This document shows, piece by piece, positions 12,221-48,579 of a DNA stretch of 64,000 bases (position 1 is its first letter; each line of letters opens with the position of its first letter). Source of the stretch: a virus; the IMG/VR virus record IMGVR_UViG_3300031951_000015, positions 110,668 to 174,667 of that record. One strand, written 5' to 3'. The notes under the pieces are model-generated. The model had not been told where the DNA came from. It was given only the letters and a program-made list of their open reading frames with translations, and made no database searches. A program made the position numbers and the translations under genes.

Positions 12221-12847
12221 TTATTTATTGGTTTGTTTAGACCATCTTTTATTGGCAGCATCACTTAATTTTTTTCTTGTTTCCTCTGTAATATTGCAAA
12301 TACGTCCCAATACAAGTCCTTCAGATAGTTTTTCTTGAACTTTTATTCTCATTATTCTATGATTCTTTTTTGTTTTTGGGTCATACATCCAAACTAAATC
12401 CAGTTTTTTAAGTGTTTGTTTTCTTTTTATTGAACTTTCTTCTGTAAAAACTTGAAGTGCTCTTGCTCTTCTAATCTTCTCTCTTGCACTTTCATTTAGA
12501 AAAAATTTACCTTTTTTAACTTTACTCATTTTTTCTTTTGTTTCTTGAGATGTAACTGCACCCTCTCTCGTAAATTTAGTCGAAGTTTGTTTTGCCCTAT
12601 TAGCAAAATGTGAGTTAAGAGCAATATCATAAAAATTATGCAACTTTATTTCTGCACGAATTGCATCCTTTCTTGTTTTAAACGTTTCGATAATTACTTT
12701 TTGAGTGGGATTAAATGTTTTATCGTGAAATGATCCAAAATAGTTTATATCTTGTTCCGGTAAGCAATTGCAACTTCTACACCCAATATACCCCCTACCC
12801 CACTCTTCATAAGAATAATAGGTATAATGATACTTCTTATTAGACAT
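12221..12847 (-). mobile_element. free-standing GIY-YIG-type homing endonuclease with NUMOD3-like DNA-binding repeats
   Basis: HYTY...RGYIG, YFGS, AE..LH, F.N motifs; ETKEKMS and EETRKKLS repeats. Confidence 0.85.
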
Positions 12848-12882
12848 TTCTTTACCATTAGGACCGCATATGTATTTATATT

Positions 12883-12934
12883 AAAAAGGAGGGACTTACA
12901 CCCTCCTCCTGATAAGATTGCGGTCCATCAGGTA
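12883..12934 (-). ncRNA. putative small RNA complementary to the GIY-YIG endonuclease leader
   Basis: Late promoter GATAAATA (12946..12939), hairpin CCTGAT-GGACCGCAATCTT-ATCAGG, terminator GGAGGG/CCCTCC-TTTTT; GGACCGCA complements TGCGGTCC at 12868..12861. Confidence 0.6.
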
Positions 12935-12948
12935 TTAATATTTATCAT

Positions 12949-12972
12949 AAAAAAAGAGGGGTAGAACCCCTC
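12949..12972 (-). terminator. intrinsic terminator
   Basis: GAGGGG-TTCTA-CCCCTC followed by T7. Confidence 0.85.
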
Positions 12973-12978
12973 AGTTTA

Positions 12979-13389
12979 TCATTCACCTGCTGGTGGTTCG
13001 GGAGTAAAGAGATCCCAAGCACCTGCTTCTTCATCCCAACGATAAAATGAACGTGCTTCAATCTCCGCCTCGGTGAGTGCAGGAGCAGGTCCTACTGGTG
13101 ATTCCCAATCAGCAGTTTCTTCATTCAGAATCCACGAAGCAAATGGTTGTGGTGGAATGAAAGCATCAAGAGTTTCATTGTAAGAGTAACCAATACCTGC
13201 ATAGCGAACTCTCATATTGTTATTGTATGAGGTTTGCTTCCAGTTGGTATCAGCACCTAGGAGTTTCTTACAAAATGCAACTCCGATTTCTTCTACTTCT
13301 ACTCCATTAGAATCAGAAGTATCTTCGTTACTCACAACAATGACTTGAGTAACAACGTTGTTTTCATCTAGTTGTGCAAAATGTGCCAT
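12979..13389 (-). CDS. conserved phage protein typically following glycine-rich tail proteins (possible assembly factor)
   Basis: MAHFAQLDENNVV.QVIVV, WKQTSYN, YAGIGY.Y...DAFIPPQP..SW motifs. Confidence 0.7.
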   Translation of the reverse strand: MAHFAQLDENNVVTQVIVVSNEDTSDSNGVEVEEIGVAFCKKLLGADTNWKQTSYNNNMRVRYAGIGYSYNETLDAFIPPQPFASWILNEETADWESPVGPAPALTEAEIEARSFYRWDEEAGAWDLFTPEPPAGE

Positions 13390-16998: not shown

Positions 16999-18105
16999 TT
17001 ATGATGCCAAGTATCGAACAATAACTATTCCAGATCCTCCGTTAGCTGTTGGAGCAGTAAATGTAGTATATTGACCTCCACCTCCGCCACCTCCGGTATA
17101 AACTACACCGTTGTTCCCATTTCCACCTTGTGCTGATACAGCACCACCGCCAGTTCCGGGTCCACCAGGTCCTCCTCCACCAGGTCCCCCAGATCCACCG
17201 GTGGATCTACCGCCAGCACCTCCTCCTCCACCAAAAAGACCAGTTGGTCCCACTGCGGATGTCCATGCCGTTCTTTCTGGAGAAGGTATAGCAGGAGCAA
17301 TAATAGGTGCAGGAAAACCTGGAAATGGTTGTCCAGCTCCACCAGCAGCAGATGATACTCCACCAGACCCTACACCACCAGCTCCACCTCCACTGTTAGA
17401 AAATGGATCGCCTGGTTGAGCATTTCCACCAATATTTCCATATTGGTTAAAACCAGTCTTTCCGATATATGCGGTATTTTGTGTCGGTTGCAGTGCTACA
17501 GAAAGTCCATTAACATATGGTGAATAACTATTCAATCCACCACCACTACCACCATCAATAGTAAATCCTGGTACTGGAGAAGCATCAAAATTTCCCCCTC
17601 CTCCACCACCCTTTGCAAGTAAGTAACCTGGAGTTGAATTTACACCAAATGTGGTATCAGATCCACGACCACCACTAGGTCCAGTAGCAGGGGTTGTTGT
17701 AGTTGTTCCAGATCCACCACCTCCGACAGATACTGGATATGGAGAACCACTAGCAACAAGATATTGTGTATGATGAACAATTCCTCCTGCACCTCCGCCT
17801 GCACCAAGAGGAGCACCAGCACCTCCACCACCAGCAACCATCAGTAATTCTATATATCCAGATCCTGGATTTGTTTTTGTAAATACGTGAGGACCATTGC
17901 CAATAAAAACATGATAAACATATCCATTTCCAGAAGAAACAGATGGTATAATAGTTCCACCAGTTGCAGTTACAGGGCTTAAAATAATTGGCCAGTTTCC
18001 ATCTTGTTGAATATACTCTTGCTGAATTAAATCCCAAATACCTTTGTTTCCGGGAGAATCAGATTGAGGTGCTGGACCAATGTAACTCGCAATTCTTTTA
18101 GACAT
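16999..18105 (-). CDS. glycine-rich adhesin-like tail protein
   Basis: ATGG..GNGYVYHVF, LMVAGGGG, GGSGIVIVRY. Confidence 0.75.
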   Translation of the reverse strand: MSKRIASYIGPAPQSDSPGNKGIWDLIQQEYIQQDGNWPIILSPVTATGGTIIPSVSSGNGYVYHVFIGNGPHVFTKTNPGSGYIELLMVAGGGGAGAPLGAGGGAGGIVHHTQYLVASGSPYPVSVGGGGSGTTTTTPATGPSGGRGSDTTFGVNSTPGYLLAKGGGGGGNFDASPVPGFTIDGGSGGGLNSYSPYVNGLSVALQPTQNTAYIGKTGFNQYGNIGGNAQPGDPFSNSGGGAGGVGSGGVSSAAGGAGQPFPGFPAPIIAPAIPSPERTAWTSAVGPTGLFGGGGGAGGRSTGGSGGPGGGGPGGPGTGGGAVSAQGGNGNNGVVYTGGGGGGGQYTTFTAPTANGGSGIVIVRYLAS

Positions 18106-22172: not shown

Positions 22173-22727
22173 TCAACTATTTATTGCTTGATGGTCTGGA
22201 AGTTTAGGAAGTAAATCAAACGCAATGATTGTTCTTTGTTTTCTCGATTGATTGGGATGAACGAAGTGTAAAGTATAAGAAGGAACAATAAACAGTGTTC
22301 CTTCTTTTACATCTTGTGGATGTGCAAGAGTTGTTGTATCAGTTCTCGGATCTTGCCAAGGTGCTACAAAGCAAGTAGGAGTATGATGTTTCGAATCATA
22401 CTCCACATAAAGAACACCAGAGAATCCCCAACTTTTATGGTTGTGAACTGTCTGATGATCTCCTTGTTTATATCTCACTGCCCAACAATCAGTCATACTA
22501 CAAGTTACTTGTGCTTCCTGACAGAACTCAAACAGTTGAGGTCTGATGAGGTCTTGGAAGTAATGTAGGTATGACTTTTTATTTGTTTGGCGATCAGTCT
22601 CAAAAGTTTGAAGAGTGGTTCTTACAAACTTTTGAGAGTTGATTCTGTTGAGAAGTCCACGGCGCTTAAAGTCCCAGTCGTCTATTTGGTATTGGTATGA
22701 TGGATATTCAAAGAGTGGTGCTTTCAT
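22173..22727 (-). CDS. putative 2OG-Fe(II) oxygenase
   Basis: W...Y..GDHQ.VHNH, FSGVLY, PS..LH.V.P, R..IAFD; start at ATGA overlap. Confidence 0.8.
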   Translation of the reverse strand: MKAPLFEYPSYQYQIDDWDFKRRGLLNRINSQKFVRTTLQTFETDRQTNKKSYLHYFQDLIRPQLFEFCQEAQVTCSMTDCWAVRYKQGDHQTVHNHKSWGFSGVLYVEYDSKHHTPTCFVAPWQDPRTDTTTLAHPQDVKEGTLFIVPSYTLHFVHPNQSRKQRTIIAFDLLPKLPDHQAINS

Positions 22728-23515
22728 ACTGGCAATCTCCAACCACGATGATGATCTACTTCAAATCTTGATAATCTTTGCATCTGTCTTTTACTCAATC
22801 CAAAATCTTTACAATGTTCATCAATATCATCAACTTTTACAATATTATTATCTGGCGATAAGAAATAATAAGTTTTCAATCTTGCTTTTCGGCATAACTC
22901 CCTTTGCTCATCGCTCATAATCAAGTTTGGTCTAATCGTATTTGTTATTTTAGCAGTCCAACCTTTATAATGATTTCTCTTTCCCATACAAACATAACAC
23001 ATAGTAGGGTTGTGTAAGTTATGTTCTAAACAAAAACTTTTCAAACTTTGAGTAATATATTCTTTACCATTTGGATCTGTAATCAAATATTCATAAACAA
23101 ACTTTGTTTTTCGCATCTTATCAACGTGTTCTTTTTTGGATTTCACACCACGACACCTATCACCAACAGCATTACCAACTCTTATTTTTAATCCTTCATA
23201 AAGACGTGAGTTGCAATAATATTCTTTATCACCACTTTTATGATGATTCATTTTCCAAAAAGCGTGAGTCATCTTTATTGTTTTTGGATGCTTTTCTCCA
23301 TACCTTTTGATAAATGCTTTTTCTAATAGAGAGTGAGCAATATAATGTTCTCTGGCAGTCAAATATACAATCCTTTTGTTCCCTTCTGTTGTCTGCCCAT
23401 AAAGAGATCTTGGAAAAACGTGATGTCCTTCCACATACATTTTCACATTTCTTTTGTTGTAACCTCTTTTCTCTGCGTTTCGTATAAGGTTACAGTAAGT
23501 CCTTAGGTAGTTCAT
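22724..23515 (-). mobile_element. free-standing HNH homing endonuclease
   Basis: MNY...Y..LI..A..R, EGHHVFPRS, LTAREHYIAH.LL; C-terminal FC.EH.L...HYKGW repeats. Confidence 0.88.
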
Positions 23516-23550
23516 AACTGCTCTTTGGTTGGTGACGTACTATTTATGCA

Positions 23551-23605
23551 AGAAAAGGGCACCAGAGCGCCCCATTCTACCTGAAATGTGTCACCAACCC
23601 AGGCA
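23551..23605 (-). ncRNA. putative small RNA complementary to the HNH endonuclease leader
   Basis: Late-type promoter CTAAATA (23616..23610), CCTG-GGTTGGTGACACATTT-CAGG, terminator GGGCGC/GTGCCC-TTTTCTT; GGTTGGTGAC complements GTCACCAACC at 23536..23527. Confidence 0.6.
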
Positions 23606-23617
23606 CTTATATTTAGG

Positions 23618-24346
23618 TCACCGGGCACGGTCCCAGGCGCAATGTGCCCTCTGCCCATCTTGTAACACGTAGTGAAAAAATATTTGATGGTAGTACAACT
23701 GTTCTTGATTTTTACCAAATAGTTTTTTACCTTTTCTATTAAGTCCTGGCATTGGATCACGCCAATGAGGTCTGGAACAACCTTTATAAACCATTCCATC
23801 ACCAGGTTTCAGAATCACTGAACGATTCTCACCAGGAACTAATACCTGTGTCTTCTTTTTATCTGCATAAGTATCTGGTGTTTTAATCCAGATCGGCCAG
23901 TCAGCATCTTCACCAGTTAGATTAGTGCTGATATGAACCGTTACAGAAATCTCACAAGCATCACGATCTGCGTGACGGGTAAGTTCTTGTCCTGGGAAAT
24001 AATAACGATCATAATAATAGGTATTATAAAGTTTACGTCCCAATACTTCTTCCAGTTTCATACGAATACCACAATGGATTTGGCGATATTGTGGATGCCA
24101 ATAACGAGCAAGAGAACCTTCAACTTGCATCTCAACTTCATGATGGGTGAACTGATCCATCTTTTTACCCCACCAGTTCAGTTGTCCACGCTCTTGTGGA
24201 ACTGGATGATAGAGTTCCTCAGGATTCCACAAGTCTTTAATAACTAGATATCCATTCTTTTCAAAGGATTCGTTGTGAGTCCAGGCAGTACCTGTATTCA
24301 TCCTTTCCTGCATCATCAGTTGCAGTTCTGTCATTTGTTCTGCCAT
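23618..24346 (-). CDS. 2OG-Fe(II) oxygenase-like protein
   Basis: L..H.DR..CEISVT, L.PGD..VY.GC...HWR, QIFFHYV. Confidence 0.85.
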   Translation of the reverse strand: MAEQMTELQLMMQERMNTGTAWTHNESFEKNGYLVIKDLWNPEELYHPVPQERGQLNWWGKKMDQFTHHEVEMQVEGSLARYWHPQYRQIHCGIRMKLEEVLGRKLYNTYYYDRYYFPGQELTRHADRDACEISVTVHISTNLTGEDADWPIWIKTPDTYADKKKTQVLVPGENRSVILKPGDGMVYKGCSRPHWRDPMPGLNRKGKKLFGKNQEQLYYHQIFFHYVLQDGQRAHCAWDRAR

Positions 24347-47900: not shown

Positions 47901-48579
47901 TATGATTCTTTTTTAAAGCAATGATTTTGGGTTCATAAGGATACTCAGGATTATTCATCTGTTCCTCAGCAAAACAATATGAAGGAGTCAAACTAAGGGT
48001 AGGAGGATTATCGATCAGGTATCGATTCATTTGAGATTCATCGTGCCAAAGAGCAATAACTCCATTTTCAAGATCTCGATTCACGCGGTCAGCAATAACC
48101 TCCGCCATTTCAAGGAATCTCTTGGTTGATCCACCATTGAAACCACCAGCATAATAATTCTCACCTTCTTCACCATATGGAACATATGCTAGAGAATTAG
48201 GATTTCTATCATAAGTTCTTTCTTCTTTCTTATGAAAAGATTGATAAGGATGCATTGTGGCAACAAGATCACTTAGAACCTCATCACCAACCTTATCAAC
48301 CAAACCCATATCAACATCAAAGTAGAAACAATAATCAAACTGAGAAATAAAATCTTTTTCCCTAATAAAGTAATTATACCTTTTCAAAGTTGGCATCGGC
48401 CAAGGTTCATGATCAATCTGACAAACTCTTACATTATCAGATGTTTCTACTTCATGATCGGTAAAAAGTAGACAATTAATTTCATGCCCATTAAGAAAAT
48501 TCTCCTCGATATTATCAAGAAGTCTTTCAACAAACTGAATGTATTTGTTTGTTGCAATAGTCAGAATACAAATTTTCAT
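47884..48579 (-). CDS. glycosyltransferase family 6 (ABO-type)
   Basis: IAT.KY, FTD, WP..TL.R, FDVD, YYAGGFNGG, WHDES..NRY. Confidence 0.9.
   Translation of the reverse strand: MKICILTIATNKYIQFVERLLDNIEENFLNGHEINCLLFTDHEVETSDNVRVCQIDHEPWPMPTLKRYNYFIREKDFISQFDYCFYFDVDMGLVDKVGDEVLSDLVATMHPYQSFHKKEERTYDRNPNSLAYVPYGEEGENYYAGGFNGGSTKRFLEMAEVIADRVNRDLENGVIALWHDESQMNRYLIDNPPTLSLTPSYCFAEEQMNNPEYPYEPKIIALKKNHNELRS

Follow-up and report, generated by a model that had tools for sequence, protein, structure and literature searches.

Free-standing homing endonucleases must stay nearly silent if they are to be tolerated by the phage that carries them, and to our knowledge little is known about how they are silenced outside T4. 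In T4 and Aeh1, a hairpin hides the ribosome-binding site of I-TevI, I-TevII, I-TevIII, segB, and mobE on RNA that reads through from upstream, and a late promoter inside the hairpin gives rise to a translatable late mRNA (PMC2988022). Translational masks are also present on the T4 genes e, soc, and 49, and I-TevI is autorepressed by binding to an operator that overlaps its late promoter (PMC2988022). Before free-standing endonucleases at cyanophage-like 'fractured gene' loci of the GOS data, Dassa et al. (2009) reported hairpins that contain an internal TATAAATA and a pair of complementary motifs, and read them as a translational mask of the Aeh1/T4 type (PMC2677866). Here we describe a related cassette that is present twice in the window, a stretch of 64,000 nucleotides belonging to an IMG/VR record of 174.7 kb from a cyanomyovirus related to S-SM2 and Bellamy.

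Both copies were read directly on the minus strand, where the layout given in the first-pass annotation was present with its spacings of 6, 4, and 25 nt (Table 1). Each cassette is approximately 100 nt long and contains, in order, a late-promoter box (P1), 6 nt, a small hairpin, an intrinsic terminator, a second late-promoter box (P2), 4 nt, and a leader whose sequence complements the hairpin loop together with its 5' strand. The complementarity between arm and leader, which had been claimed to be exact, is 8/8 in copy 1 and 10/10 in copy 2. The hairpin stem of copy 2 is only 4–5 bp and is marginal. A GC-rich stem followed by a U-tract lies directly 3' of the hairpin in both copies and in 152 modules. 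The pattern AAATA-N4-8-CCTG-N8-30-CAGG occurs at two sites in the window, these being copies 1 and 2, compared to an expectation of 0.19. The loop/leader arrangement is real at both places and is far beyond what chance would produce.

Table 1. Features of the two cassettes and of the adjacent genes (window coordinates).
Feature	Position	Strand	Remarks
Gene downstream of copy-1 nuclease, 511 aa	10659-12194		Pfam T7 tail-fibre N-terminal domain, 25.0 against a cut-off of 25.2 bits
Copy 1 homing endonuclease gene, 208 aa	12221..12847	-	N-terminus GIY-YIG-like by eye; NUMOD3 motifs
Copy 1 nuclease ATG	12847	-	25 nt past P2 box
Copy 1 leader	12848..12868	-	TGCGGTCC at 12861-12868 complements arm; 13 nt to ATG
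Copy 1 P2, late-promoter box TATAAATA	12873..12880	-	followed by CATA
Copy 1 cassette terminator	12883..12907	-	AGGAGGG...CCCTCC, then T5
Copy 1 anti-leader hairpin	12908..12932	-	stem CCTGAT/ATCAGG; arm GGACCGCA at 12919-12926; full string CCTGAT-GGACCGCA-ATCTT-ATCAGG
Copy 1 P1, late-promoter box GATAAATA	12939..12946	-	6 nt from hairpin base
Intrinsic terminator after 136-aa ORF	12949..12972	-	resident, outside the cassette; Bellamy has a terminator at the same place
Stop codon of upstream 136-aa ORF	12979-12981	-	5' of copy 1
Copy 2 HNH-type homing endonuclease gene, 263 aa	22724..23515	-	stop codon and ATG of the following gene overlap (ATGA)
Copy 2 nuclease ATG	23515	-	25 nt past P2 box
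Copy 2 leader	23516..23536	-	GTCACCAACC at 23527-23536 complements arm; 11 nt to ATG
Copy 2 P2, CATAAATA	23541..23548	-	followed by GTAC
Copy 2 cassette terminator	23550..23573	-	
Copy 2 anti-leader hairpin, CCTG...CAGG	23580..23603	-	arm GGTTGGTGAC at 23590-23599; full string CCTG-GGTTGGTGAC-ACATTT-CAGG; 6 nt from P1
Copy 2 P1, CCTAAATA	23610..23617	-	immediately 3' of the stop codon of the upstream gene

The cassette is a more elaborate form of a known control, the mask helix and the nested late promoter being already known from T4 and Aeh1. It shares with the T4-type mask the pairing of the nuclease leader with an RNA segment further upstream, the placement of a TATAAATA late promoter between the arms, from which late transcripts would lack the 5' arm, and the kind of gene controlled, namely free-standing homing endonucleases within phage operons. 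It differs from the T4-type mask in that the loop contains an intrinsic terminator, that another conserved late-promoter box precedes the 5' arm by exactly 6 nt, and that the 5' arm forms part of a small hairpin which co-varies. In addition, the helix abuts or partly covers the ribosome site, whereas T4 buries the Shine-Dalgarno sequence and the AUG, and the whole unit is portable between unrelated nuclease genes. The hairpins of Dassa et al. (2009), compared by description only, very probably belong to the same module family. They are likewise found upstream of GIY-YIG or Vsr-like endonuclease ORFs, and the 3' end of the endonuclease gene overlaps the downstream gene as it does here, but the sections consulted contain no mention of an upstream promoter, an inner terminator, a small 5' hairpin, or a separate RNA (PMC2677866). 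The suggestion that the arrangement is not a described system must therefore be divided. It does not hold for the cis hairpin with a nested late promoter, which the same article had already reported (PMC2677866); it holds for the form with two promoters and a terminator, our literature search for P1, 5' hairpin, and terminator having found no description. A further point of comparison is CfrI of cyanophage S-PM2, reported as an antisense transcript of approximately 225 nt that spans F-CphI and psbA (Millard et al. 2010, via PMC2984593). CfrI resembles the putative cassette RNA in being a cyanomyovirus non-coding RNA tied to a homing endonuclease gene, but it is a true antisense RNA from the opposite strand, and S-PM2 is without the cassette.

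Cassettes in other genomes were collected by two scans of IMG/VR. The first employed the layout as a pattern and gave at least 125 matches; the second employed only P2 and the common leader box AGAGTAGAA, being thus blind to P1 and the hairpin, and gave approximately 55 true cassettes. At least 133 distinct cassettes are present in IMG/VR cyanomyovirus contigs. Homologues of the copy-1 nuclease were found at three IMG/VR loci with the same layout. One of these has an arm identical to that of copy 1, the second is at a different insertion site and pairs TGGGTTGCA with TGCAACCCA, and the third has another stem and pairs TGTGTCGCA with TGCGGCACA, including one G·U. Among the first-scan matches listed, the arm-leader helix starts approximately 4 nt after P2 in 101 of 125, with at least 52 different helix sequences represented. 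Watson-Crick pairs number 993 in the helices of the matches listed; the remaining positions comprise 71 G·U or U·G pairs and 5 mismatches, none of which is A·C. This bias toward G·U without A·C indicates that pairing takes place at the RNA level, on the sense strand of the nuclease, and renders unlikely the pairing with the non-template DNA strand that had been suggested. The co-variation of loop and leader in homologous loci, which the first-pass annotation had proposed as its own test, was found across many loci, more than 50 arm types being present in which arm and leader co-vary.

Pairing was quantified in an alignment of 51 cassettes with different arms, with shuffled and slid alignments as controls. 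Within the mask helix 87% of the cells are paired, compared to 66% in shuffles, and 155 cells contain double changes, compared to 45 in shuffles; the covariation score is 0.556, compared to no more than 0.113 for the slid controls. Within the hairpin stem 95% of the cells are paired, double changes occur at 4/4 pairs, and there are 11 double-change cells compared to 1.2 in shuffles. Columns 20–21, which are the C and U of CCUG in the 5' strand of the stem, co-vary with both of their partners, indicating that the hairpin and the mask helix are mutually exclusive and that both are selected. These data show that the hairpin 5' strand and loop pair as RNA with the first 8–14 nt of the leader, and that the same 5' strand pairs alternatively with the hairpin 3' strand. 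The CCTG/CAGG scaffold, previously taken to be fixed, undergoes compensated changes, occurring as CCTG/CAGG, CCTT/AAGG, CCTA/TAGG, and TCTG/CAGA and in G·U forms. The CTG of this scaffold is in addition a pairing partner of the leader. The arm varies within a fixed type of terminator stem, and vice versa. Diversifying selection on the arm was considered and rejected, the divergence per site being 0.57 for arms (57 types) and 0.54 for terminator stems (67 types). Rfam, searched at the gathering score with five cassette-bearing loci, gave tRNA matches only and no family corresponding to the cassette.

Both types of box look like late promoters of this phage, based on their coding-strand bias (31:3 for ATAAATA and 7:0 for CTAAATA) and on their common position 14–28 nt 5' of ORF starts. 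The late-promoter consensus reported for cyanomyoviruses is NATAAATA (PMC2984593). In copies 1 and 2, as in nearly all cassettes, a P2 box of the form TATAAATA or CATAAATA precedes the 3' arm by 4 nt. When cassettes were sampled without requiring P1, TAAATA was found 6 nt before the hairpin base in 54 of approximately 55, and this fixed spacing holds also where the upstream gene ends far off, as in copy 1. The boxes of P1 and P2 are both followed by the context NTAWT-R-C, which has a purine where transcription would be expected to begin and is absent from the other late promoters of the genome. P1 is often CTAAATA instead of ATAAATA, and a P1 of the CTAAATA type may be weak. At the sequence level, the upstream unit has the parts that a separately transcribed RNA of approximately 50 nt would be expected to have: a conserved late-promoter box at fixed spacing, a co-varying 5' hairpin, and a terminator of its own. 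Among 63 cassettes with a co-oriented upstream gene, the upstream ORF terminates at the TAA of the P1 TAAATA in 20, and the stop lies within 5 nt of P1 in approximately 10 others. The 5' end of the cassette closes the reading frame at the landing site, and this provides another reason for keeping P1. In 7 of 70 cassettes the preceding gene has the opposite orientation, so that sense read-through into the cassette is unlikely, yet P1, hairpin, and terminator are all kept in these.

The protein encoded behind copy 1, which had been called a GIY-YIG endonuclease, matches the PHROG 'homing endonuclease' (E 2.6e-13), with Pfam NUMOD3 just under the cut-off; the Pfam search did not confirm a GIY-YIG domain. 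The designation of the copy-2 gene as HNH agrees with its matches to HNH and homing-endonuclease PHROGs, its Pfam NUMOD matches being sub-threshold only; peptide patterns found no relatives of this protein in IMG/VR. In S-SM2 and Bellamy, the gene upstream of the copy 2 site overlaps the next gene, a 2OG-oxygenase gene, by ATGA. The copy 2 cassette and HNH gene (22743-23617) are absent from both of these phages and are inserted exactly at the ATGA overlap, which the 3' end of the insert re-creates. The precision of this insertion indicates that all five parts of the cassette, from P1 to the leader, entered together with the nuclease. It also excludes P1 of copy 2 as a resident promoter of the downstream gene, the nuclease-free relatives having no promoter at the junction. 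For P1 of copy 1 such an origin is possible, as Bellamy has at this site only a terminator and CATAAATA before the next gene. A new late-promoter box for the downstream fibre gene is located in the last codons of the copy-1 nuclease gene (12222-12228). The seg and mob genes of T4 similarly hold embedded promoters within the nuclease gene. As side observations, the HNH gene ends in codons that resemble those at the end of the upstream 'ferrochelatase-like' gene (22724-22760 compared with 23618-23660), so that the insert looks as if it carries a diverged duplicate of the target-site flank; and the copy-2 leader has a weak resemblance (CACCA) to the nuclease-free junction, noted when the arm and leader were considered as a copy of the homing site.

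The genes behind cassettes are nearly all mobile nucleases. Among 65 representative downstream ORFs, matches were found to NUMOD3 (31), GIY-YIG (9), and an I-HmuI NUMOD-like domain (9), with single matches to HNH, endonuclease VII, and TnpB (OrfB_IS605 / Cas12f1-like TNB), and the cassette precedes at least four unrelated nuclease families (GIY-YIG, HNH, EndoVII-like, and TnpB). Identical arm/leader pairs, such as ATTTGACCGCA or ACTTGCTGACA, precede ORFs with unrelated N-termini, indicating that the target belongs to the cassette and not to the nuclease gene. The earlier view of a guide re-programmed for each nuclease is not supported by this result, since the target lies in the cassette's own leader. 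The module is exchanged as a unit at the leader/ATG junction. A TnpB-like gene (OrfB_IS605, Cas12f1-like TNB, HTH_OrfB_IS605) was observed behind the cassette in cyanomyovirus contigs (L080:245-1438, also L063 and L090); the module therefore also serves an RNA-guided nuclease/transposon gene in T4-like phage.

The same genome contains additional elements on the minus strand before the window. A third full cassette, at approximately 66390 of the genome (about 44,280 bases before the window start), has the stem CCTGAT/ATCGGG, the arm CTGATTTGCTCGCA / ATTTGCTCGCA, and the leader TGCGAGCAAATTAG, and precedes a 264-aa ORF that starts MQPRIYTYKITFEEV. At approximately 76118 (about 34,550 bases before the window start) is a classical T4-type mask from which P1 and the terminator are absent. 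Here TAAGTCTTGGCG is paired to CGCCAAGACTTA, the helix lies 2 nt from the ATG, and the loop contains TAAATA; the ORF that follows is nuclease-like, 157 aa in length, and starts MKVSQHPLYHTWNGMIRRC. The simple form is thus present alongside the elaborate one in this genome. The exact window genes also occur in a lake sample series (for example JGI 3300008267 and 3300032050, and ENA ERZ27247979). Three cassettes are present in the freshwater isolate S-SRM01, at 17955-18028, 48435-48510, and 192423-192493 of NC_070963.1. None was found in S-PM2, S-SM2, or Bellamy, F-CphI of S-PM2 being preceded by a terminator and TATAAATA only. Only 3 of 152 modules are orphan P1-hairpin-terminator units without an adjacent cognate leader, and a search of the same loci found no distant target for them; given the rarity of orphans, there is no sign of action at a distance. 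One orphan-looking unit (L006:848-960, stem CCTA/TAGG, loop AACATTTACAAATT) lies approximately 550 nt upstream of a complete cassette, and the two others are at L057 and L108/L127.

We also examined the predicted folding of the RNAs. The read-through RNA folds into a long-range helix around the terminator hairpin, with P2 in the loop (-28.6 and -34.8 kcal/mol, z -3.9 and -4.3). Cofolding gave gains of -9.9, -6.6, and -17.4 kcal/mol for cognate pairs, compared to 0 to -2.5 kcal/mol for non-cognate pairs from the same genome. In most of the cassettes listed, the helix enters the UAG of UAGAG, covering 2–3 nt, at 5–8 nt before the AUG. The helix of copies 1 and 2 ends 13 and 11 nt before the AUG, respectively, and leaves the purine-rich box free, so that any block of the ribosome site would be indirect in these two copies.

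We favor a reading in which the cassette is a self-contained mobile regulatory element of approximately 100 nt that combines a cis mask with an additional layer of anti-leader RNA; taken as a whole, we consider this reading reasonably probable. The cis mask on read-through RNA is its firmest part and is very likely. Transcripts arriving from upstream would mostly stop at the cassette terminator, and those that read through would carry both arms and form the long-range helix by or over the Shine-Dalgarno-like AGAG box. The nuclease would remain untranslated on such RNA because of the helix next to or over this box. The only translatable mRNA would be that started at P2, its predicted start, placed according to T4 geometry, falling 1–2 nt inside the 3' arm, so that the 5' arm is missing. 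Control of this kind would follow the scheme of I-TevI and segB in T4 and of mobE in Aeh1. P1, the 5'-terminal hairpin, and the terminator would constitute a late transcription unit of their own, producing an anti-leader RNA of approximately 50 nt. Such a separate late transcript is suggested by the inner terminator, the conserved P1, the co-varying hairpin, the context shared by P1 and P2, and the cassettes behind opposite-strand genes, features for which the T4 precedent provides no explanation, and we place the existence of a functional separate RNA from the upstream unit at close to an even chance. This RNA would pair in trans with the first 8–14 nt at the 5' end of the P2 mRNA, would also reach cassettes with the same arm in co-infecting phage, and would damp late nuclease synthesis or confine it to a short pulse as late transcription begins. 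We regard as tentative, at somewhat below an even chance, the full version of a device with two outputs, the cis mask and a stable RNA of approximately 50 nt acting in trans, from which the nuclease is made as a pulse. Because P1 and P2 are of the same temporal class, a trans repressor has no obvious timing logic.

In type I toxin-antitoxin systems such as istR-tisB and zor-orz, adjacent small antisense RNAs pair with a 5' leader. The putative cassette RNA would be similar in being short, in having its own promoter and terminator, in being encoded beside its target, and in having limited complementarity (8–14 nt) to the leader or ribosome-loading region of the mRNA for a potentially harmful protein. 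It would differ in being encoded in tandem on the same strand instead of divergently or in overlap, in that the same arm would also work in cis on read-through RNA, and in that the protein is a homing nuclease and not a membrane toxin.

The main alternative is that the cassette acts only in cis, as a terminator combined with a read-through mask of the T4 type, with P1 making no functional separate RNA. P1 would then serve through its TAA and AT-rich stretch to close the upstream frame at the insertion joint, or P1-started transcripts would represent one more masked read-through, and the hairpin would keep the arm from misfolding until the leader is made. We consider this alternative less probable though a serious one, for the known T4 precedent needs no second promoter and the mask at 76118 is an example without P1 or terminator in the same genome. 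The coincidence of the P1 TAA with the upstream stop (20/63), the near-constant association of arm with leader, and the finding that arms change no faster than terminator stems are also consistent with it. Action in cis does not readily account for the constant spacing of exactly 6 nt between P1 and the base of the hairpin in 54 of approximately 55 cassettes found without asking for it, for a P1 start-site context that is the same as that of P2, for the compensatory changes that keep the hairpin stem, or for the retention of the whole upstream unit behind opposite-strand genes.

Two other explanations are far less probable. The cassette might encode a programmable guide RNA, with a fixed scaffold and a guide that varies so as to target each nuclease mRNA, or else the non-template DNA strand where the gene starts; this would amount to a new kind of guide-RNA system. 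The many arm/leader pairs on a similar layout, and the orthogonality of cognate and non-cognate pairs of this genome in the cofolds, would fit such a guide, but we consider it highly unlikely: the target is inside the cassette with the same pair before unrelated ORFs, the arms are no more divergent than the terminator stems, the scaffold is not fixed, and there is no conserved effector protein, the downstream genes belonging to at least four unrelated nuclease families. The occurrence of G·U without A·C in the matches listed also argues for RNA-RNA pairing on one strand. The same counts (71 G·U/U·G compared to 5 other mismatches, with no A·C, among the matches listed) stand against the arms being a DNA-level inverted repeat, either a protein operator or a site of recombination or cruciform formation on both sides of the terminator and promoter; A·C mismatches would be expected if duplex symmetry or the opposite strand were important. 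The arms do bracket P2, and autorepression of I-TevI via an operator overlapping its late promoter is established (PMC2988022). Given that the same arms precede unrelated nuclease families, and that the arm co-varies with a third segment, the hairpin 3' strand, a DNA-level role as the explanation is extremely unlikely.

The cassette thus represents one compact, exchangeable RNA module that serves at least four unrelated nuclease families, including TnpB, in many freshwater and marine cyanophage genomes, with selection on two mutually exclusive pairings and two promoters. If the small RNA is indeed released, this would be the first sRNA-based control of homing endonucleases, and a portable, self-targeting sRNA/mRNA pair on selfish nuclease genes would be a principle undescribed for homing endonucleases. 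The cassettes, in their more than 50 variants, would then also provide synthetic biology with a natural set of minimal orthogonal sRNA/leader pairs. In genome annotation, the cassette reliably flags mobile nuclease insertions and their boundaries in cyanophage contigs.

Two minor observations were made in the contigs examined. Several public contigs start approximately 47–50 nt before the copy-1 ATG; these starts were considered as transcript ends and rejected, as they fall inside the repeated terminator and represent an assembly break. In one IMG/VR contig (L010:5350-7520), 16 tRNA genes are located a few kb downstream of the cassette-bearing nuclease gene.
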